Shown here: one piece after another, positions 248-52,569 of the stretch
Numbering within the stretch: position 1 is the stretch's first letter
How the letters are laid out: each line of letters begins with the position of its first letter
From: Candidatus Nomurabacteria bacterium
GTDB lineage: Bacteria > Patescibacteriota > Minisyncoccia > Phycocordibacterales > UBA9973
Direction: 5' to 3'
Length of the DNA: 64,000 nt
Assembly (NCBI GenBank): GCA_943348755.1
Contig: CALQYS010000001.1
Location: 69,963 to 133,962 of the forward strand
The notes under the pieces: generated by a model
Databases searched by the model: none
What the model was told of the DNA's origin: nothing
What the model saw: the letters and a program-made list of their open reading frames with translations, nothing else
Translations under genes and position numbers: made by a program

Positions 248-937
248 TTATATCAATCTAAGTAGTTGGTTTGCAAAACGAATTAAATCAGCAACTTCAT
301 TTGGGTCTGTGTAAGAGACTACTCGGTGGCTGGTGGGATTTTTCAAAAGGCCAATAGCTCCAGAAAAAAGGTTATGTTTCGCTAGTTGCTCTGGGACAGG
401 AGAAGTTTTATCAGTTAGTAATCCCGTATTTGCTTTAAATGCTTTGCTCATCAAATCAATGCCTATGTCAGTTTCAGCTAAGTTTGCCTTGCGTCTAACC
501 CTAACTTCTACTTCACGAAAAGCTTGAAATATGGCTGTCTCGTAGTCACCTCTAATAAAAGTAGGTTTTACTTTTTCTATTAAAACTGGATCAAGCCCAG
601 ACGAAGGTAGTAATGAACCTTTTTGATAAACACTAAAATCTTTTTCTTGCAAGATTTTCTTACCTTTCCGGGTAACAAAACTCCATCCATCAGTTGTTCC
701 TGGTTGGGGAGCTAGGAACCCCTCTACTTCTAGCCACATCCAAGCTTCCATTAAAACTCTATAAACATCACCCGATTTTCTTTGAGCATAACTTTCAATT
801 TCTGCATTTGGAAGGCTGAAGTTGTAACGATTTAAGTTGGGCTGAGTTTCTAGGTATCTCAATACAATAGGAGCAATTTCTTCTGGTTGCATTGAGAGTA
901 AGTCTTCTATTGGAGGCAATAATTCTAAGAGTCTCAT
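248..937 (-). CDS. TIGR02391 (Hypoth_Ymh) family protein
   Basis: C-terminal AF..VE..VR, G.DLM..AF, LF.GAIG..KNP.SH pattern; N-terminal EAW.WL...G winged-helix-like segment; start overlaps pepN stop. Confidence 0.75.
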   Translation of the reverse strand: MRLLELLPPIEDLLSMQPEEIAPIVLRYLETQPNLNRYNFSLPNAEIESYAQRKSGDVYRVLMEAWMWLEVEGFLAPQPGTTDGWSFVTRKGKKILQEKDFSVYQKGSLLPSSGLDPVLIEKVKPTFIRGDYETAIFQAFREVEVRVRRKANLAETDIGIDLMSKAFKANTGLLTDKTSPVPEQLAKHNLFSGAIGLLKNPTSHRVVSYTDPNEVADLIRFANQLLRLI

Positions 938-3591
938 AATTTATATTTTCTCTCCAAAAACCTTTCTATTTTCCTTCCGTCTCTTTTGAGCCAAGCGACG
1001 TTGCCTTCGAGCCGCTCGAGGACTTGCTGGATAGAGCGCTTGGCTCCTGGGGCATCGTGGGTGGTAAAGAATTTTTTAAAAGATTTGAGGTGTTTCTCTT
1101 CCGCGCTACTTGAAATAGCCTTCACGAGTCGGGCGAGGGTGTGTCCACCGTCCCCATAGCGGGCGACAAGCTGTACCCACTTCTTTTGTACAAAGTCGAG
1201 CCAGATGTCTCGACCGAGAGGGTTGGCGCCAACAGAGGAGAGGATGCCGATAGTGTCTTGTTTGCGGACATGTTCAGAGAAGGAAAATTCACAAGTTAGT
1301 TTTAATAGTTTGTCATCACAGAAATCACCCAAGGCGCTTCCGATTCTGTTTTTCTCTTCGTGTAATGTCTCTGCTTTGTATTTTTTGATAAAAGTGTCGT
1401 ATTCTTTCTGTCCGCCATGCTTCGCAATAATAGAATAAATAGCTCCGCGGAGGTCAGGATTTACATGTCCACCTGTCTGAAGGCTGGTGAACTTCTTTTT
1501 GGCTTCATCTATTACTTTTTGATCACCCGAACGTCCAGCGCGAGAGATGGCAAGGGAGCGTAGCAAGGCGTCAGTGTGTGCTTCACCTTGCTTCTTTTCC
1601 CAGCCTAATTTACGAGCAAGAGGGGAGAAAAGGGAGAGAGCAAGCTCGTCGAGTTTATTTTTTACTTTATCCTCTTTCGCCAATAAGGCCTCCAGCCTAC
1701 CTATACCCATGGCTAATTCGAGCCAGACGGTGTAATTATCTTCGTTTTTATATGCAGATAGGAACTCGAGAGCATCAGTCGTTGGCACTGTGCCTGCTTC
1801 TGCTAGAGCAAAGAGGTCTCTGATGATGCCGAGTCTGTCTCGCGCAGACAGGAGTTTCTTTTCTACCGGCATTTTTAGCTTTTCTAAAAGTTCTGTGGAA
1901 TATGCTGTTCTGAAAAATCCTGCCTCGCCAAAATTAACCTTTATCCAAAAATCTTGTAAATCAAACTTTTTGCCCCTCGTTGCAGGCACACTTTTTAAAA
2001 AGCCTTGCGCAGGCGGGTAGCCGAGCAGTTCGCTCCCAAAGCTTTGGGAGATAGATTGCTTTATAAAAAGTTGTGCCAAGAAAGAGGGGCTATGACCAAA
2101 AGAGACAGAAACGGGTACTTGCCATAGAGTCTTATCTTTTGTCTTTGCTTTTGACGCTGGACTTGCAAAGAATCTTTCTTGGGAAAGTTTTAATTTGTCA
2201 TTTTTCATCTCTGCTTTTATTACCGGATATCCGGGTTTGCCAGTCCAGTTTTTCATCATCTTTGCCACTGGCTTCTTGGAAACTTTTTCAAACGCTTCCC
2301 ACAAGTGAAAGGTCTCAGTATTTTTATAGCTATGCTTTTTGAGATAATGTCGCAGTCCATCGCGGAAATCTTTTTCACCGAGATAGTCTGCAAGCATGCG
2401 GATGACGGAAGCGCCTTTAGAATAGGACACTTCATCAAATATCTCGCCTATTTCATCAGGGTGATGCACGTGGATCTCGATCGGATGCGTGTGGAGCAGG
2501 GCGTCGAGGCGGAGCGCAGTGCCGAGCTCGTTGGTGGAGAATTGGGTCCAGATGTCCCAATGAGGGAAAAGTTTATCGATCGCGAGGTATTCTATGTATG
2601 AAGCAAAGCCTTCATTTAGCCATAGGTGCGTCCACCATTCCATGGTTACCAAGTTGCCAAACCATTGATGCGCTATTTCATGAGCTATAACGAGAGCCAC
2701 CCATTGCTTGTTGCCGATAGAGGAATGGTTTTCATCTACCAAAAGGGCTGATTCACGATATGTGATGGCACCCCAGTTTTCCATGGCTCCGGAAGTAAAG
2801 TCGGGGATGGCAATCATGTCGAGGACTGGCAGGGGATATGCGATGTCAAAATATTCTTCGTAAAATTCAAGGGTCTTCACGGCGCAGTCGAGGGCGAACT
2901 TCGCTTGGTGTTTTTTCCCTGGGGTGGTAAATACTCGCACCTGTACGTTATTTTTTGTTTTGGATTCTATATATTCAAAGTCTCCAATGATAAACGCTAA
3001 AAGGTAGGTAGACATTTTTGGCGTCGGAGAAAATTTAATTATTTCGTAGCCGGCTTCGTGTTCGGAAACAGAAACTGGCAAAGTGTTTGATATAGCAGTT
3101 TTACCTTTTGGAATGATGAGCGAGACATGGAAAACTGCTTTCTGGGCTGGTTCGTCAAAGCAGGGGAAGGCTCGACGGGCATCTGTGGCTTCAAACTGCG
3201 TCGTAGCCATGTGATGTTCTTTATCACCAATAGTATACTTGCTTCGATAGAAGCCCCGCATCTTGTCATTGAGGATACCTTTAAATACGATAGTTAATTT
3301 TATTTTTCCTTTGTTCTCTTTAGGAATATTTTTAGGGAAAGTGAAAGTGGCTGTCTCAGACTTTTCATCATAAGAAATTTTCGCGAAATCATCTTTAATT
3401 CGGGCTGTCTCTATCTCTATCTCTTTGCAGTGTAGCGTGAGTGTCTTTGTCGGTTTCAAAATAGAGAGAGTAATAGTCTCAATTCCCTCAAAAGTAAAAT
3501 TGTTTAGATCAGGCCGTAATTGAATATCGTACTCTATCGGAACGACGTTTTTAGATAAGCGTACGCTCTTTGCAGTTTGCTTCTTTTGCAT
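934..3591 (-). CDS. pepN: M1 family aminopeptidase (puromycin-sensitive/PepN type with ERAP1-like C-terminal domain), with in-frame structured insert at 1972-2090
   Basis: GAMENWG, HEIAHQW and downstream NEGFA zinc ligands; start moved to MQKKQ (3591), which lies 7 nt from a TATACT -10 box. Confidence 0.93.
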   Translation of the reverse strand: MQKKQTAKSVRLSKNVVPIEYDIQLRPDLNNFTFEGIETITLSILKPTKTLTLHCKEIEIETARIKDDFAKISYDEKSETATFTFPKNIPKENKGKIKLTIVFKGILNDKMRGFYRSKYTIGDKEHHMATTQFEATDARRAFPCFDEPAQKAVFHVSLIIPKGKTAISNTLPVSVSEHEAGYEIIKFSPTPKMSTYLLAFIIGDFEYIESKTKNNVQVRVFTTPGKKHQAKFALDCAVKTLEFYEEYFDIAYPLPVLDMIAIPDFTSGAMENWGAITYRESALLVDENHSSIGNKQWVALVIAHEIAHQWFGNLVTMEWWTHLWLNEGFASYIEYLAIDKLFPHWDIWTQFSTNELGTALRLDALLHTHPIEIHVHHPDEIGEIFDEVSYSKGASVIRMLADYLGEKDFRDGLRHYLKKHSYKNTETFHLWEAFEKVSKKPVAKMMKNWTGKPGYPVIKAEMKNDKLKLSQERFFASPASKAKTKDKTLWQVPVSVSFGHSPSFLAQLFIKQSISQSFGSELLGYPPAQGFLKSVPATRGKKFDLQDFWIKVNFGEAGFFRTAYSTELLEKLKMPVEKKLLSARDRLGIIRDLFALAEAGTVPTTDALEFLSAYKNEDNYTVWLELAMGIGRLEALLAKEDKVKNKLDELALSLFSPLARKLGWEKKQGEAHTDALLRSLAISRAGRSGDQKVIDEAKKKFTSLQTGGHVNPDLRGAIYSIIAKHGGQKEYDTFIKKYKAETLHEEKNRIGSALGDFCDDKLLKLTCEFSFSEHVRKQDTIGILSSVGANPLGRDIWLDFVQKKWVQLVARYGDGGHTLARLVKAISSSAEEKHLKSFKKFFTTHDAPGAKRSIQQVLERLEGNVAWLKRDGRKIERFLERKYKL
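1972..2090 (-). mobile_element. In-frame structured (MITE/REP-like) element inside pepN
   Basis: Nested inverted repeats gcccctc/gaggggc, ggcaca/tgtgcc, ctttttaaaaagc/gctttataaaaag; internal palindrome ctcccaaagctttgggag; core shared with 52412-52569. Confidence 0.8.
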
Positions 3592-3636
3592 GATTTTCAG
3601 TATATCTTTTTTTACGAAAAATGCTAATATACAAGG

Positions 3637-4398
3637 ATGAATACAGGTATCCCGACACAAACATTTCAGATAAAAACGACTGGTTTTGAAGGTCCGTTTG
3701 GGTTGCTTTTGGAGCTAGTAGAAAAGCGGAAACTTCATATTAATGATGTATCTTTGGCATCGGTTACAGAAGACTATTTGAACTATATAAATAAAATGGG
3801 GAATCTACATCCAGCCGAAGTGGCGAGTTTTGTGTTGGTGGCTTCTACTCTCATTTTAATAAAATCAAAATCCCTTTTGCCGAACCTGAGTCTGACCGGT
3901 GAAGAAGAAGGGGATATAAAGAATCTAGAAGAAAGGCTGCGCTTGTTTGAAATTTTCACAAAACTGGGTGTAAATGTGAAAAATATGTTTGGAGAGAAAA
4001 TAATCTTTGCTCCGCTCGAAAGGAAAAACGATGTCTTAGTATTTTTGCCAGATGAGCAGATTACAAAAGAAAGCATGATGGGTTTTGCCAAGGGCGCTCT
4101 TGGAAGTATGCCCAAAAAGGTATCTATGCCAGAAGTGGAGGTGCGAAAAGTCATCAGCATCGAAGAAATGATCAACAATCTGACGGAAAGAATCCAGAAT
4201 TCGGTGAAGATGAGCTTCAAAGATTTTGCAGGTAAGGCTAAAACGAAAGAAGAAAAGGTGTTTGTAATTGTGGGGTTTTTGGCGATGCTGGAATTGGTCA
4301 GAAGTGGTATATTAAACGTTGTGCAAGAGAGCGGTTTCGCGGATATTATTATTGAGAAGCAAGAAGGTCCGATTCAGTTGATGCAAGAAAATTTATAG
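3637..4398 (+). CDS. scpA: Segregation and condensation protein A
   Basis: FEGPFGLLL.L..K N-terminus, IKSKSLLP, C-terminal FLAMLEL; adjacent to scpB. Confidence 0.92.
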   Translation: MNTGIPTQTFQIKTTGFEGPFGLLLELVEKRKLHINDVSLASVTEDYLNYINKMGNLHPAEVASFVLVASTLILIKSKSLLPNLSLTGEEEGDIKNLEERLRLFEIFTKLGVNVKNMFGEKIIFAPLERKNDVLVFLPDEQITKESMMGFAKGALGSMPKKVSMPEVEVRKVISIEEMINNLTERIQNSVKMSFKDFAGKAKTKEEKVFVIVGFLAMLELVRSGILNVVQESGFADIIIEKQEGPIQLMQENL

Positions 4399-22731: not shown

Positions 22732-22780
22732 TTGCTCTATCTTATCATTTTTTTAATTTAAAACAACCTAAAAACTAGCT

Positions 22781-22832
22781 TAAAACGAAAAGGACCCTGC
22801 ATCGCGCGATGCGCGCAATGCAGGGTATCCTT
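22781..22832 (-). terminator. Intrinsic terminator of orphan cassette 1
   Basis: Minus strand AAGGA-ta-ccctgcat...atgcaggg-TCCTTTTCGTTTTA. Confidence 0.75.
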
Positions 22833-22897
22833 GGTCGATCAGACGATTTCTCGTCCGGCCCAGAATCTACGTCTGAGCTCGGTGATGTGAGGCAGGC

Positions 22898-23566
22898 TTA
22901 CGCCGCCTGCAATGTGCCCTCACCACGGCTGGCCGGCTGGGGTTCGGTGGGCGCGTAGCCTTGTTCGGCGGTGCCGGGATCACCAGCAGGTCCAGCGGGC
23001 AGCTGATCGGCGTCACCAGGTTTGGCGGTCACAGTGGTGTTCTCAGCGCCGAGTTCTTCGCGGAGCTGCGGCGTAGCGGCCGGCTTCAAGAAATGCCTCG
23101 CCGCCAGTTCGTGGAACTTCGTCGCATCAATGAGCGGGTTGATGGCCGCCGCGTGAGTGATGCCGGTCAAGTTGAGGCTAAATTCTGCCTCGATGCCTGC
23201 GATCGTGGGGGCGTCGAATTCATAGCCTCCCGCGAATGCGTTCCATTTTCCGCGCTCAGTCACGTCGTCGAGTAAGTTGCCTTCTTGGCCCCGGATCCAC
23301 GCCAGGAACTCCGGAAACGACGGCAGGTGGTCGAGCGAGGTGATCCACTGGTTCAGGGCTTCACGCTTCACGTTCAAGCCCCGGGTCTTGTCCTGGTAGC
23401 CCTCGAGGATGAGCAGGTCGAACCCGTCACCGCGGCCCCATTCGTCAACCGTGGCCTTGATCATCTCGATCAGGATCTTCTGCCACAGGCGCAGGAGGTG
23501 GGCCCAACCAGTGAACACATCGGCAAAGCCAGACGGATGCAGCGGGAGTAGTTGTAGTGTTTTCAT
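22898..23566 (-). CDS. GC-rich orphan hypothetical protein
   Basis: 222-aa ORF visibly much more GC-rich than its neighbours, with its own promoter, leader and terminator; Pro/Ala/Gly-rich tail. Confidence 0.65.
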   Translation of the reverse strand: MKTLQLLPLHPSGFADVFTGWAHLLRLWQKILIEMIKATVDEWGRGDGFDLLILEGYQDKTRGLNVKREALNQWITSLDHLPSFPEFLAWIRGQEGNLLDDVTERGKWNAFAGGYEFDAPTIAGIEAEFSLNLTGITHAAAINPLIDATKFHELAARHFLKPAATPQLREELGAENTTVTAKPGDADQLPAGPAGDPGTAEQGYAPTEPQPASRGEGTLQAA

Positions 23567-39264: not shown

Positions 39265-42188
39265 TATTGTGAATTAGAAAATTTATGATAAATGGTATTT
39301 AATTTTTTAACATTTGTTTCAACTATTTTGTTTTTGCCATTCACTATAGTTATTTTCCCACCCTTCTCTACTTTGCCGAGTTTTGTGTAGGAGATTCCTA
39401 CAAGCACTTTTTCAAATTCTTTTGTGTTTTTAGGAGAAACAGAAACAAGAATCCTTCCTTGGCTTTCAGAGAAAAGTTTAGCATCTATTGTTGATGCGCT
39501 TCCAGCCAGATCTTTGAGGTTCACCCCACACCCCACATTTCCTCCGACACAGGCTTTAGCGAGTGCTATGCCCAAGCCTCCAGATGTCACAGAAAGAGAA
39601 GAGGCCACTAATTCTTTTTCGATACATTTTTCTAAAGCAAGATAAACTTTTAGATTTTTCTCTAAATTAACTTTCGGAACATTATTCCCAACTCCACCCA
39701 ACATTTTAAAATATTCACCACCTCCAAGCTCGTCTTTCGTTTCTCCAAGTAGATAAATTACATCACCACCGTTTTTGAATTCAGGCGAAACGGTCTTGTA
39801 CAAGTCAGGCATCACGCTGATAGCCGAGATGAGTAGCGTCGGCGGTATAGATATAGCCACCGGATTACCTTTTTCATCATAACCTTTAAAGTCGTTGAAC
39901 ATGCTGTCCTTGCCGGAAATAAAGGGCGTGCCGTAGCCCACAGCATAGTCGTAGCAGGCTTTGACGGATTCTACGAGCTGGTAAAGCCTTTTTGGATCAT
40001 TTGATGAGCACCAGCAGAAGTTGTCGAGTATGGCTAGGTGCTTGAGTGCACCACCGGCTGCCACGATGTTTCTGACAGCAGTATCGAGCGCGCAGGCTGC
40101 CATGTGATAAGTGCTGATGTCTCCATATGAAGGATAGGTGCTGGATGAAAGGACGACTGCTTTATTTGAGCTCAAAACAGGGCGGAAAACTTGAGCATCA
40201 GTGTTGATGCGTCCAGCACCTGAAAGTGGTTTCAAGACGGATGATGCCTGCACTTCATGGTCGTATTGTTGTGAAATAAAAGAAAATCCACCAATGTTTT
40301 TTTCTCCAAGTAAATTTTCTAAAACTTTTGTTCGAGACATACCCTTTGGCATTTCTGGCTCAGGATTTTTTTGCTCTACTTTGGTCGTAGTCAGATGGTG
40401 TTTCGGCAGTCCATTGTGCAGAAATTCCATTTCCATGTCCATGATTTTTTTACCATGCCATTCAATTATTACTTTTCCAGAATCTGTAAATTCACCTATT
40501 ACTGTTGATTCTACTCCCCTACTTTCCATTAATTTTTGGAACGCAGGCCATTTGTCTTTTGGGACAGATAGAGTCATGCGTTCTTGTGATTCGGATATCC
40601 AAATCTCCCATGGTGTAAGTCCTGGGTATTTCAAAGGTACTTTTTCTAGGAAAACTTTTACTCCGCCACACTCCCTTGCCATCTCTGCCACCGAAGAGGA
40701 AAGTCCTCCTGCCCCATTATCTGTGATGCTATTATATAGACCCATATCACGAGCTTCCTTTACTATTGCATCGCTTAATTTTTTTTGAGTTATCGGGTCA
40801 CCGATTTGCACAGCAGTAGCTGGTGAAGTTGAATCTATTTTAACTGACGAAAAGGTGGCTCCATGAATACCATCTAGCCCCACTTTCCCACCAACCATTA
40901 CCACATAGTCACCATTTTTCGCGCCTTTTTCGTGTGAAAATTTATTTTGTACTTTTTTTGGAATCAAGCCCACAGTACCAGCAAAGACTAAGGGCTTACC
41001 TCTAAATCTGTCGTCGTATTTTATAAATCCAGATAAGGTTGGAATTCCAGAACAATTTCCTCCGACATTGATACCTTTTATTACGCCATCCATAATCCTC
41101 TTCCCGGATAGCATCGGCTGGGTAAGGTTTTTATCTCGGAAAAATTTTCTTTCGTCTTCTGGATATCCAAAACAAAATCCATATGTATTAACTACGGGTT
41201 TAGCGCCTAAGCCAAATCCTATAGCATCACGATTAACTCCTCCTATGCCAGTAACTGCTCCGCCAAATGGATCGAGCGCCGAAGGGCTGTTGTGTGTCTC
41301 CACCTTGTGCGTCACTAGATAATTTTCATCAAAAACTATGCCGCCAGCATTATCAGAAAATACAGAAACACAAAAATCATCTTTTCCTTTTTGTTTGCGT
41401 ATTAAATTTGTAGCACCCTTGATGTATGTTTTATATAGGCCATCTTTAACCTGTAGCCCTTCTGCATCTATCGAGTTAGCAAAAATAGTATGCTTGCAGT
41501 GTTCAGACCACGTCTGCGCCAGAGACTCTAGTTCTATATCTGTCGGGTCCCTTTTTAATGTTTCAAAATATGCTTTGATAGCTTTCATGGAAGCTAGATC
41601 AAGCGCGAGTGGGCCACGGCGTGTGCCTGATTCATCCATTATTCCTTCTCCACCTATTTTTATAAGCTCGTCGTCGGGTGCTGATAGAGGAACGGTAACC
41701 ACGGGGGTTCTTTTATTTAAAATTACCTCCGGAACTTTATTTAGAAAATTTATTTTCCTGTTTTTAACTTCTACGATCGTCGCTTTCTCTATCAGCGGAT
41801 TATACATAGCGTTCGCAATTTCTTTCACCTCTTCCGCTTTGCCAGAAACAAGGAAAATCTTTGAGGTATAAAAGTTAAGAGGTTTGTCTGCTTTTAGTTT
41901 AAATAAATCCGTCGCTATTTCTTTGACCGTATGAGCCACATTGTCAGTCACTCCAGGTAGCAAGCTTATTTCAATGGCAAAATTAAATTTCTCTATTTTC
42001 GGAGATTCATCTATAAAAGACTCCTCTAAAATAGGGTTCGTGAGTGCTCGAGCCAGTGTTTCAAGTTCTTTTTTTGAAAATTCAGAATCGATCAGATAGG
42101 AGTCAATCTGTTTTGCCCCGTTTTTTAGCCCGCCTGCAACGTTGTGCGTAGCACTTCGGGCAGGCATCACATATATGCGCGAAATCAT
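39264..42188 (-). CDS. purL: FGAM synthase synthetase subunit with fused PurS-like N-terminus
   Basis: PGVTDN, QTWSEHCKH, KVETHNSPSALDPFGGA.TG, D.GAGG, SESQERM, QYDHEV, SGKDS, LFSES. Confidence 0.96.
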   Translation of the reverse strand: MISRIYVMPARSATHNVAGGLKNGAKQIDSYLIDSEFSKKELETLARALTNPILEESFIDESPKIEKFNFAIEISLLPGVTDNVAHTVKEIATDLFKLKADKPLNFYTSKIFLVSGKAEEVKEIANAMYNPLIEKATIVEVKNRKINFLNKVPEVILNKRTPVVTVPLSAPDDELIKIGGEGIMDESGTRRGPLALDLASMKAIKAYFETLKRDPTDIELESLAQTWSEHCKHTIFANSIDAEGLQVKDGLYKTYIKGATNLIRKQKGKDDFCVSVFSDNAGGIVFDENYLVTHKVETHNSPSALDPFGGAVTGIGGVNRDAIGFGLGAKPVVNTYGFCFGYPEDERKFFRDKNLTQPMLSGKRIMDGVIKGINVGGNCSGIPTLSGFIKYDDRFRGKPLVFAGTVGLIPKKVQNKFSHEKGAKNGDYVVMVGGKVGLDGIHGATFSSVKIDSTSPATAVQIGDPITQKKLSDAIVKEARDMGLYNSITDNGAGGLSSSVAEMARECGGVKVFLEKVPLKYPGLTPWEIWISESQERMTLSVPKDKWPAFQKLMESRGVESTVIGEFTDSGKVIIEWHGKKIMDMEMEFLHNGLPKHHLTTTKVEQKNPEPEMPKGMSRTKVLENLLGEKNIGGFSFISQQYDHEVQASSVLKPLSGAGRINTDAQVFRPVLSSNKAVVLSSSTYPSYGDISTYHMAACALDTAVRNIVAAGGALKHLAILDNFCWCSSNDPKRLYQLVESVKACYDYAVGYGTPFISGKDSMFNDFKGYDEKGNPVAISIPPTLLISAISVMPDLYKTVSPEFKNGGDVIYLLGETKDELGGGEYFKMLGGVGNNVPKVNLEKNLKVYLALEKCIEKELVASSLSVTSGGLGIALAKACVGGNVGCGVNLKDLAGSASTIDAKLFSESQGRILVSVSPKNTKEFEKVLVGISYTKLGKVEKGGKITIVNGKNKIVETNVKKLNTIYHKFSNSQ
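42129..42164. repeat. 36-bp in-frame palindromic element near the purL start (PARSATHNVAGG)
   Basis: cccgcctgcaacgttgtgcgtagcacttcgggcagg; termini shared with the purH insert. Confidence 0.78.
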
Positions 42189-51368: not shown

Positions 51369-52406
51369 TCAAATTTTACTCAAAAATTCATTAACCAATG
51401 TTTCCACTTGTGATGCATTTTCTGTTTCCATCAACTTCATGCGGAGTTCTTTGGTACCATCGAAGCCATTACAGTACGCCTTATAGTGCTTTTTCATGAT
51501 GGCGAAGTTTTTATGTTTACCGAGCTTTTCTTCAAAAAGTTTCGTGTGTTCTACCATCACTCGTAGTTTTTCTGAAATTGAGGGCACGAAGATACTTCCA
51601 ATTTTTCGGCCCTGCGCCCTTCCCCCGAGTACGGGGGTGGGACCCTCGGGCAGCTCAAAATTGGAAGTATCTTCTTTGCTGAATAGCCATGGATTCCCAA
51701 ATATCGCTCTTCCGAGCATCACACCGTCACAACCAGTCTCTTTTATTTTTTGCTTTGCATCTTCTAAATTCAAAGCATCACCATTTCCCAGTATCAAAGT
51801 ATCTTTTCTTAGTTCATCACGAATCTCTACTACCCTTTTCATCAAATCCCAATGCGCAGGCACGTCAGACATTTCTTTACGTGTACGTAGGTGTATTATA
51901 AGGGCAGCGATATTTTCTTTTAGAAGCTCCGGTATCCAAGTCTCAATTTCATTTTTATTGTAGCCAATACGAGTCTTCACAGAGACAGGTAGTCCGCCCC
52001 CACCTTCGATCGCAGCACGGATACATTCCCGAGCGAGCGCTGGATTTTTCATCATGGCGGCCCCGGAACATTGCTTTTCGATGGATTTATCCGGACAGCC
52101 CATATTTATGTCTATGCCGTCAAAGCCCAGCTCTTTGCAAAGCTCCGAAGCCTTTTTAATGTTTTCCGGCTTGGAGCCAAATATTTGTGCCACGATCGGA
52201 TGTTCGTTTTCTCCATAGATAAAATCAATCAAGAGTTTTTCTCTAGCAACGGGATGCGCAAGACCATCCGCAGAGACAAACTCGGTCCAAAAGACATCTG
52301 GCTTACCGTACTTAGCGATAATTTGCCTAAAAACACAGTCTGTGACATCTGCCATCGGCGCTAAGGCGAAAATAGGTTTCTTAAGTTTTGTCCAAAAATT
52401 CTGCAT
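51369..52406 (-). CDS. dus: tRNA-dihydrouridine synthase, with 29-codon insert
   Basis: LAPMA.VTD, DINMGCP, SVKTRIG, H.RT, GNGD, G.M.GR...GNPWLF, MKKH. Confidence 0.94.
   Translation of the reverse strand: MQNFWTKLKKPIFALAPMADVTDCVFRQIIAKYGKPDVFWTEFVSADGLAHPVAREKLLIDFIYGENEHPIVAQIFGSKPENIKKASELCKELGFDGIDINMGCPDKSIEKQCSGAAMMKNPALARECIRAAIEGGGGLPVSVKTRIGYNKNEIETWIPELLKENIAALIIHLRTRKEMSDVPAHWDLMKRVVEIRDELRKDTLILGNGDALNLEDAKQKIKETGCDGVMLGRAIFGNPWLFSKEDTSNFELPEGPTPVLGGRAQGRKIGSIFVPSISEKLRVMVEHTKLFEEKLGKHKNFAIMKKHYKAYCNGFDGTKELRMKLMETENASQVETLVNEFLSKI
51588..51674. mobile_element. 87-bp in-frame element with perfect 18-bp terminal inverted repeats in dus
   Basis: gaagatacttccaatttt (51588-51605) / aaaattggaagtatcttc (51657-51674); GC-rich inner hairpin cccccg-agta-cggggg. 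Confidence 0.85.
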
Positions 52407-52411
52407 ATTTT

Positions 52412-52569
52412 AGTGACAGAAAGTATCTTTTATAAAGCAATCTATCTAGCAAAGCTTTGCTAGCGAACTTCTCGTCGCTCAAGAAAATAATAAATGGCAA
52501 AAGTCTACAATGCCATTTTTATTTTCTAAGCTCCTGCGAAAGGCTTTCTAAAAGAAACTTTCTGTCACT
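52412..52569 (+). mobile_element. 158-bp intergenic multi-hairpin element, sibling of the pepN insert
   Basis: 27-bp terminal inverted repeats (25/27), palindrome ctagcaaagctttgctag, second hairpin 52482-52527; core nearly identical to the reverse complement of 1991-2069. Confidence 0.85.

Follow-up and report, generated by a model that had tools for sequence, protein, structure and literature searches.

A fold-back element of 119 bases lies in frame in the aminopeptidase gene pepN of a Candidatus Nomurabacteria bacterium (positions 1972–2090, minus strand) and was analyzed here together with its relatives. Positions refer to the window, i.e., the whole 64,000-nucleotide stretch under study (GenBank assembly GCA_943348755.1, contig CALQYS010000001.1, positions 69,963 to 133,962 of the forward strand). 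The pepN element is probably an immobilized miniature transposable element with inverted repeats (MITE), consisting of a fold-back passenger between IS982-like ends for which the corresponding transposase is the predicted mover in trans. Young copies of its family have the same ends and the same 7-bp duplication as an IS982-like element, and movement as a MITE is for this reason most likely for the family. The tie between this three-way family and IS982-like transposon ends is new in this work, as is the extent, determined by measurement, to which the pepN insert is frozen.

Family Copies and Transposon Ends

The source genome of the window (694 kb in 13 contigs, 95% complete, its relatives being Nomurabacteria, Parcubacteria or Paceibacterota where named) holds around 15 copies of the family, 14 of them covariance-model matches accepted at E values up to 0.05 and one recovered by motif scan; a profile built from eight copies gave eight strong matches in the same genome. 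Copies are 119–170 bp long, within the <500 bp size range of MITEs, and encode no transposase. Four subfamilies, alpha (the pepN type), beta, gamma, and delta, have the layout and the hairpin P3 (CTCGGC-loop-GCCT) in common and differ in junction and outer stem. Across the genus the model matched 86 of 101 genomes, with 565 matches (34 candidates scored per genome; G083 and/or G155, two unpublished genomes, are counted in the genus tallies, and all other claims are independent of them). Most copies were intergenic, and many occupied short gaps within likely operons. In genome G097, 19 near-identical delta copies were found at unrelated sites, their ends well delimited and bordered on the outside by direct repeats, and the family is mobile. 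A sequence-only reading of the window had proposed, from the pepN copy and one sibling, that there is a mobile family of multi-branched elements, conserved for structure and entering open reading frames in frame like Rickettsia palindromic elements; this proposal is supported, further copies being those counted above, and the reading as a whole is partly supported.

With regard to the spread of the family, nine of the 80 loci listed by a loose pattern scan of the genome collection, with candidate phyla radiation-type or unassigned labels, were followed, and all nine fitted the model. A phylum-wide model search of 150 other genomes gave two borderline matches which, with 22 candidates scored per genome, do not amount to evidence of absence. 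In viral contigs the element core gave a single match, judged to be due to chance, and the 15-base end word of the transposon gave 67 raw matches; no genuine family match was obtained in phage and plasmid records.

Young alpha, gamma, and delta copies have terminal inverted repeats in common with a transposase-bearing element of 983–985 bp. The end word was present in 28 of the 212 genomes searched, and in G211 two ends lie 985 bases apart, delimiting an element with a 270-aa DDE transposase (PF13612, PF01609) and a perfect 7-bp duplication; an element of 983 bp in G169 displayed the same ends, a DDE transposase, and a perfect 7-bp repeat. Among 45 distinct end pairs, some of them spurious, the 7-bp flanks matched at six or seven bases in 17 cases (11 perfect), as compared to a mean of 0.78 and a maximum of 5 in 2000 permuted sets. 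The partner element (978–985 bp, one DDE transposase of 266–270 aa, short terminal repeats, 7-bp duplication) falls within the IS982 ranges for all of these features. Relatives of the transposase (n = 2139) were frequently located on 1-kb contigs, and those with a name belonged to Nomurabacteria, Taylorbacteria, and Parcubacteria.

The older, pepN-type copies could be connected to these ends through intermediates. Nearly whole ends were present in the alpha copies L410, L327, L062, and L422, and the pepN copy aligned collinearly with L422, which bears the full terminal inverted repeat (the third row of that alignment is unrelated filler). Of 186 alpha cores, 72 had outer module and flanks; in the corresponding 144 arms the inner six end bases were kept in 76–94% and matching faded outward, the next twelve bases giving 4.0 matches vs. 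3.4 in shuffles (maximum 3.9). One further copy in the source genome has the end word on both sides. The interiors of the 19 G097 copies, judged by eye against the asymmetric outermost bases, were oriented one way in 10 cases and the reverse way in 8, with one symmetric, which points either to inner repeats between which the interior inverts or to a pair of master copies.

Two of the young G097 copies (L279 and L518) carry a 20-base palindrome of another family nested in the P2 tip. Identical transposon ends were also found around other interiors (L420, L431, L434, L435, L436, L527, L530, and L536), ranging from minimal shells of 47–72 bases to branched hairpins of 160–220 bases.

Several observations weigh against the interpretation as an IS982-moved MITE. 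The best NCBIfam match of the transposase was the IS982 model NF033520 (E 3e-29), below its cut-off however (102 vs. 130 bits), and the partner ends begin with CT, agreeing with the consensus AC-N6-T-N5-TT only in the T at position 9; the partner would thus be placed in an IS982-like group and is not a confirmed IS982 member. No such transposase was found in the source genome, which is 95% complete, multi-copy elements being often missing from assemblies, and it appeared in just 9 of 212 genus genomes. Transposase and intact ends co-occurred in seven of these nine (the G097 match being a fragment), a coincidence that is partly circular since the insertion sequence's own ends fit the search pattern. 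Most alpha copies, the pepN copy among them, lack both complete ends and a target duplication, which stood at the expected place in 2 of 72 alpha copies (permutation p 0.04); of its ends the pepN copy retains just the innermost bases. The interior, for which the insertion sequence offers no equivalent, is conserved more than the ends, opposite to a typical MITE. Moreover, transposition alone explains neither the near-frozen state of the endless pepN copy nor the refilling of loops by unrelated hairpins, both described below.

Structure of the pepN Copy and Its Sibling

The host gene (934–3660, minus strand) encodes an M1 aminopeptidase of the PepN/PSA type, whose best solved relative is puromycin-sensitive aminopeptidase (PSA), with intact GAMEN and HEXXH-E motifs. 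Its reading frame is unbroken across the insert (908 aa, all three M1 aminopeptidase Pfam domains present), and the roughly 39 codons of the element lie in frame in the linker separating the catalytic and C-terminal domains. An 86-kb contig crosses the insert with no joint; it comes from a public sequencing run from which this DNA may itself derive. The copy was located where the earlier reading had placed it, on the minus strand, and is read as the peptide quoted there between WQVPV and WIKVN; that this segment is an insertion was borne out by orthologs without the peptide (25 PepN rows). Nothing suggests splicing of the insert. An intron was also considered, and the coding copies seen, which all keep frame and occur on either strand, argue against it.

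The element belongs to the alpha subfamily and is made up of outer arms, an interrupted long stem, and a three-way junction, all features being given on the minus strand. The 5' outer arm of 7 bp (2084–2090) contains an inner CTC that is the counterpart of the IS982-like terminal repeat's inner end, its other bases being site-specific, and on folding it is complementary to the 3' outer arm (1972–1978). Hairpin P2 (2033–2050; 7 bp and a 4-base loop) is the freely covarying arm, with 76 sequence variants among the 186 alpha cores, and hairpin P3 (2008–2025; CTCGGC-loop-GCCTGCG, with one mismatch and one bulged base) carries the motif common to all subfamilies. The native fold of the 119 bases beat all of 200 shuffles, with z values from -4.7 to -5.8 for both strands and for DNA and RNA parameters.

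The intergenic sibling has an alpha core and outer arms unlike those of the pepN copy, and occupies the gap between a POTRA/ftsQ-type gene and dus. It was indeed present at 52428–52553 as previously proposed, but proved longer, its inverted arms spanning 52412–52569 (plus strand). An extra hairpin arm stands in place of the P3 loop (52478–52533, plus strand) and was seen again in many other copies. Similarity between both copies was far beyond chance (BLAST E 1.5e-11 in a genome search), and the exchange of CCC/GGG in the pepN copy for AGC/GCT in the sibling preserves pairing, as the sequence-only reading had noted.

Stem Covariation

Changes in the stems were almost entirely two-sided. When 89 distinct copies were aligned to the model, 95% of cells were paired and 528 two-sided vs. 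11 one-sided changes were counted; controls with shuffles and slid alignments gave far lower values, the alignment favoring the model and its rows being related. A model-free count of the P2 stems of the 186 alpha cores gave 1269 Watson-Crick, 5 G-T, 14 A-C, and 14 other pairs. An invariant G-U pair in P3 was an artifact of the covariance model, whose pairing is shifted there by one base, the true register having a bulged T. RNA stems are usually rich in G-U intermediates, and their near-lack here fits DNA fold-back together with template-switch changes. Two-sided Watson-Crick changes, taken with the presence of either orientation at orthologous sites (see below), indicate that a DNA fold-back is what is kept, and not a peptide or a strand-specific RNA. 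Of the ssDNA/RNA element proposed originally, the evidence favors the DNA part over the RNA part.

The possibility that the copies are a functional structured RNA (a processing site, or a regulatory or catalytic element) that the host retains and that has spread through the genome by copying was weighed on the same data and appears improbable. Strong covariation, conserved unpaired linkers, the many copies in short gaps of likely operons, and the near-frozen pepN copy would fit such a role. However, either strand is transcribed at orthologous intergenic sites, in tsaD, and in pepN, and this free orientation weakens it; G-U pairs and one-sided changes are nearly lacking, and junctions are unlike between subfamilies. 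No Rfam family was matched: at gathering score (Rfam 15) only two tRNAs were detected over the window, and a scan by E value of eight copy-bearing loci yielded nothing under E 6. A hammerhead-like junction was considered and dropped because the junction bases mismatch the motif and vary between subfamilies.

In-Frame Sites and Orientation

Five copies of the source genome are in frame, in pepN, tsaD, a pcrA/uvrD-type helicase gene, rsmA, and mnmA, with both strands represented. Coding copies were rare among strong, mostly alpha copies (2 of 85); in metagenome contigs, 4 of the 79 copies listed were coding by script, three of them convincingly (two in pepN, one in dus).

In the 25 PepN rows, the stretch from W-x-[VI]-P to K-x-N varied from 13 residues (six rows) up to 64 in the window, and rows without a hairpin insert had mostly around 30–38 residues. 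The same site contains an identical alpha insert in G187 and G235, a different alpha copy in another reading frame in G033 and L351, copies on the opposite strand in L335 (alpha) and G031 (gamma), and other hairpins in G029, G014, and G013. The pepN site is a tolerant one that is filled again and again. In several lineages of the genus the interdomain segment of PepN is mostly lost, with 13 residues vs. around 35 in human PSA.

The loop of tsaD presented a family member in 27 of the 29 top-scoring orthologs, all in frame, with a beta or gamma-like core; these 29 are biased toward insert-bearing genes, tsaD being matched in 181 of 212 genomes. Orientation, labeled by eye, was one way in 15 and the reverse in 12. 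Flipped pairs were alike at around 90–98 of 100 bases, whereas third positions of identical flanking codons differed by 39–55%. Since the loop keeps the element in either orientation, with differing peptides, the peptide is not the conserved thing; a flip of the element replaces the encoded peptide wholesale. Neighbors in the tsaD tree, the backbone of which is weak, were often unlike in insert state, and twenty low-scoring loci (L612–L631) displayed empty loops of 17–22 residues as well as unrelated hairpins. This loop is in itself a hot spot of palindromic elements in an essential gene, being empty or holding at least five unrelated hairpin families (20 genomes).

Outside genes, orientation with respect to flanking genes was mixed (30 vs. 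14 and 19 vs. 17 in two sets of sites that are not independent), and either orientation occurred at orthologous gaps upstream of an NYN-domain gene and at atpD/atpC, map, a yqeY-like gene, and dus (gene names assigned by eye). The dus gap that holds the sibling in the window carries the element in the opposite orientation in L347. Within dus itself, an unrelated GC-rich hairpin family occupies positions 51588–51674 in frame (around 29 codons) and has four further copies in the genome; in the metagenome locus L372 the same loop is occupied instead by an alpha element.

In-frame entry of this kind offers a route by which core enzymes of highly reduced genomes, TsaD and MnmA among them, can acquire loops of 40 residues.

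Near-Freezing of the pepN Insert

Among the source genome, G187, and G235, the insert (39 codons, 117 bases) showed 1–2 base differences, none of them in a third position. In contrast, every other 39-codon window of pepN (more than 750 per pair) showed at least 13 base and at least 11 third-position differences, the median of the latter being 21–22. At the observed rate of around 53%, the arithmetic chance of 0 third-position changes in 39 codons is approximately 1e-13. The site-specific parts, namely the outer arms and the P2 variant, were frozen as well, whereas the immediately flanking bases had diverged. A single origin of the three inserts was not rejected by the approximately unbiased (AU) test (p 0.76), which is not proof of it.

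Conservation for the encoded peptide could be suggested by its 97–100% identity in three species, and the segment occupies the place of around 35 residues in longer PepN relatives and human PSA. We nevertheless regard this explanation as very improbable: it is contradicted by the lack of synonymous change, with zero third-position changes in 39 codons against the median elsewhere in the gene, and in other alleles the element is read from its reverse strand or in a different frame, has a different core, or is missing.

A copy without ends is under no selection for its own transposition, and conversion by other copies would erase site-specific variants; it follows that either the fold is selected or a recent, exact move between species took place. 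We favor purifying selection acting on the folded DNA, or on the capacity of both strands to fold, together with the open frame, this being the least certain step of the interpretation. Amid third-position divergence of around 50%, the frozen insert implies constraint on, or active renewal of, DNA structure within coding sequence. As a tentative alternative, the element may be a fold-back DNA signal that has been domesticated or maintains itself. IS982-like transposon ends would have delivered it, and it would afterward be preserved nearly unchanged, in translated genes too and in both orientations, through selection for a protein reading the bulged stems, or through an undescribed exchange of hairpin cassettes in which interiors at fixed sites are flipped and swapped across species.

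Proposed Course of Events

According to the MITE interpretation, gene-less fold-back DNA would be inserted by an IS982-like transposase acting in trans; older copies, such as the one in pepN, have lost their outer ends and retain the folded interior. After insertion, the interior may invert between its own inverted arms, and further copies or different hairpins may take its place at a given site; template switching could repair or alter stems two bases at once, and the encoded peptide would be a tolerated linker.

The folded interior could, alternatively, be a mobile or self-maintaining hairpin cassette in its own right, which a single-strand hairpin-reading enzyme such as an Ssn-like single-domain GIY-YIG nuclease would insert into, swap with, or flip within hairpins already present, and which would spread between species; the IS982-type shell would then be just one such hairpin among others. 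Loops refilled by differing cores and unrelated hairpins, with close tsaD relatives unlike in state, would be expected from such exchange, as would the pairing of several outer stems with several cores, the short unrelated palindrome within the P2 tip of two G097 copies, and near-identical cores in distant alleles. Ssn nucleases (PMC11893778) recognize the stem and flanking bases and disregard the loop, and a hairpin before the single-domain GIY-YIG gene of the source genome has a 10-base word of the element's outer stem. Of 29 related GIY-YIG genes, however, 4 had this word nearby, the background being 6%, and none of the 31 GIY-YIG loci scanned with the model was directly flanked by an element. 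PF01797 (RAYT/Y1 transposase) was not found in the 95% complete source genome, nor was a split element enclosing a gene found in five high-copy genomes. Young copies carry IS-type ends and duplications, and, as reported above, descent of the three matching pepN inserts from one origin was not rejected (AU p 0.76). On balance we consider an independent cassette unlikely. As movers, RAYT, Ssn-type GIY-YIG, and a gene enclosed by split halves were each tried and were unsupported.

Regarding the GIY-YIG genes themselves, the single-domain gene of 78 aa lies between a hairpin and a tRNA-like gene (L238:1430-1800; G000:C6:21380-21770), and its six closest relatives present the same hairpin/tRNA-like arrangement. 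Other GIY-YIG subfamilies of the genus are found within inverted repeats of their own, each distinct in sequence, and are likely to be Ssn-like nuclease/repeat pairs. A short hairpin of the type that precedes the small GIY-YIG gene was also observed at the 5' end of a 978-aa minus-strand frame in the window (around 42100–42180; G000:C1:112060-112140).

Comparison with Known Systems

IS982-derived MITEs (PMC9769881) resemble the present family, whose own mobilization in trans is predicted, in being short, gene-less, mostly intergenic, provided with the terminal repeats of an IS982-type element of around 1 kb, and moved in trans. The MITEs described there for Cardinium are intergenic or gene-inactivating. 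The interior of the family studied here is, in contrast, a three-way fold that is conserved and has no relation to the parent element; it outlasts end decay, probably inverts in place, and lies in frame in housekeeping genes. In the IS982 survey (PMC7335449), ends begin with AC in 57 and with CC in 5 of 69 members and duplications measure 2–10 bp; compared with that account, the partner element fits in length, transposase size, and duplication, and its first two end bases do not.

Rickettsia palindromic elements, as presented in PMC10969869, are likewise palindromes of 100–150 bases found in intergenic regions and in frame in unrelated housekeeping genes. Each of them encodes a conserved peptide according to that account, whereas here frame and orientation vary, young alpha copies are rarely coding, and a candidate transposase is known. 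At the protein level, the RPE1 profile TIGR01045 had no match in the genome and the pepN peptide had no NCBIfam match up to E 10. How palindromes of this kind enter protein genes has been unsolved, and the candidate transposase, ends, and 7-bp duplication found here permit a direct test of mobility.

Two further systems are comparable in part. In the Bacillus cereus group, bcr1 (PMC3184786) is a mobile repeat of around 155 bases that duplicates its target and maintains a cruciform-like fold through compensatory changes; likened by description only, it differs in its 5-bp duplication, RNA-level interpretation, and host group. In Ssn/NTS-SRM repeats (PMC11893778) the hairpin is also DNA, with a stem that matters and an exchangeable loop, and small GIY-YIG genes are common in the genus; nonetheless the published NTS motif is of another sequence, and the element showed no spatial association with GIY-YIG genes.

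The family therefore resembles IS982-derived MITEs in its predicted movement and Rickettsia palindromic elements in its destination, and by sequence it falls in neither of these two named families. A literature search whose coverage did not extend to subscription journals, ISfinder, or supplements found no paper describing it. The earlier suggestion of an undescribed element holds in so far as neither Rfam nor RPE1 was matched, but not as a new class of mobile element, a MITE with a likely IS982-like mover being the better description.

Other Features of the Window

The stop codon of pepN lies within an overlap with a TIGR02391/Hypoth_Ymh-type gene (PF09509; positions 248–937). At 22776–23240, successive 110-base windows fold strongly, with around -45 to -49 kcal/mol as RNA, and lie outside the present family.

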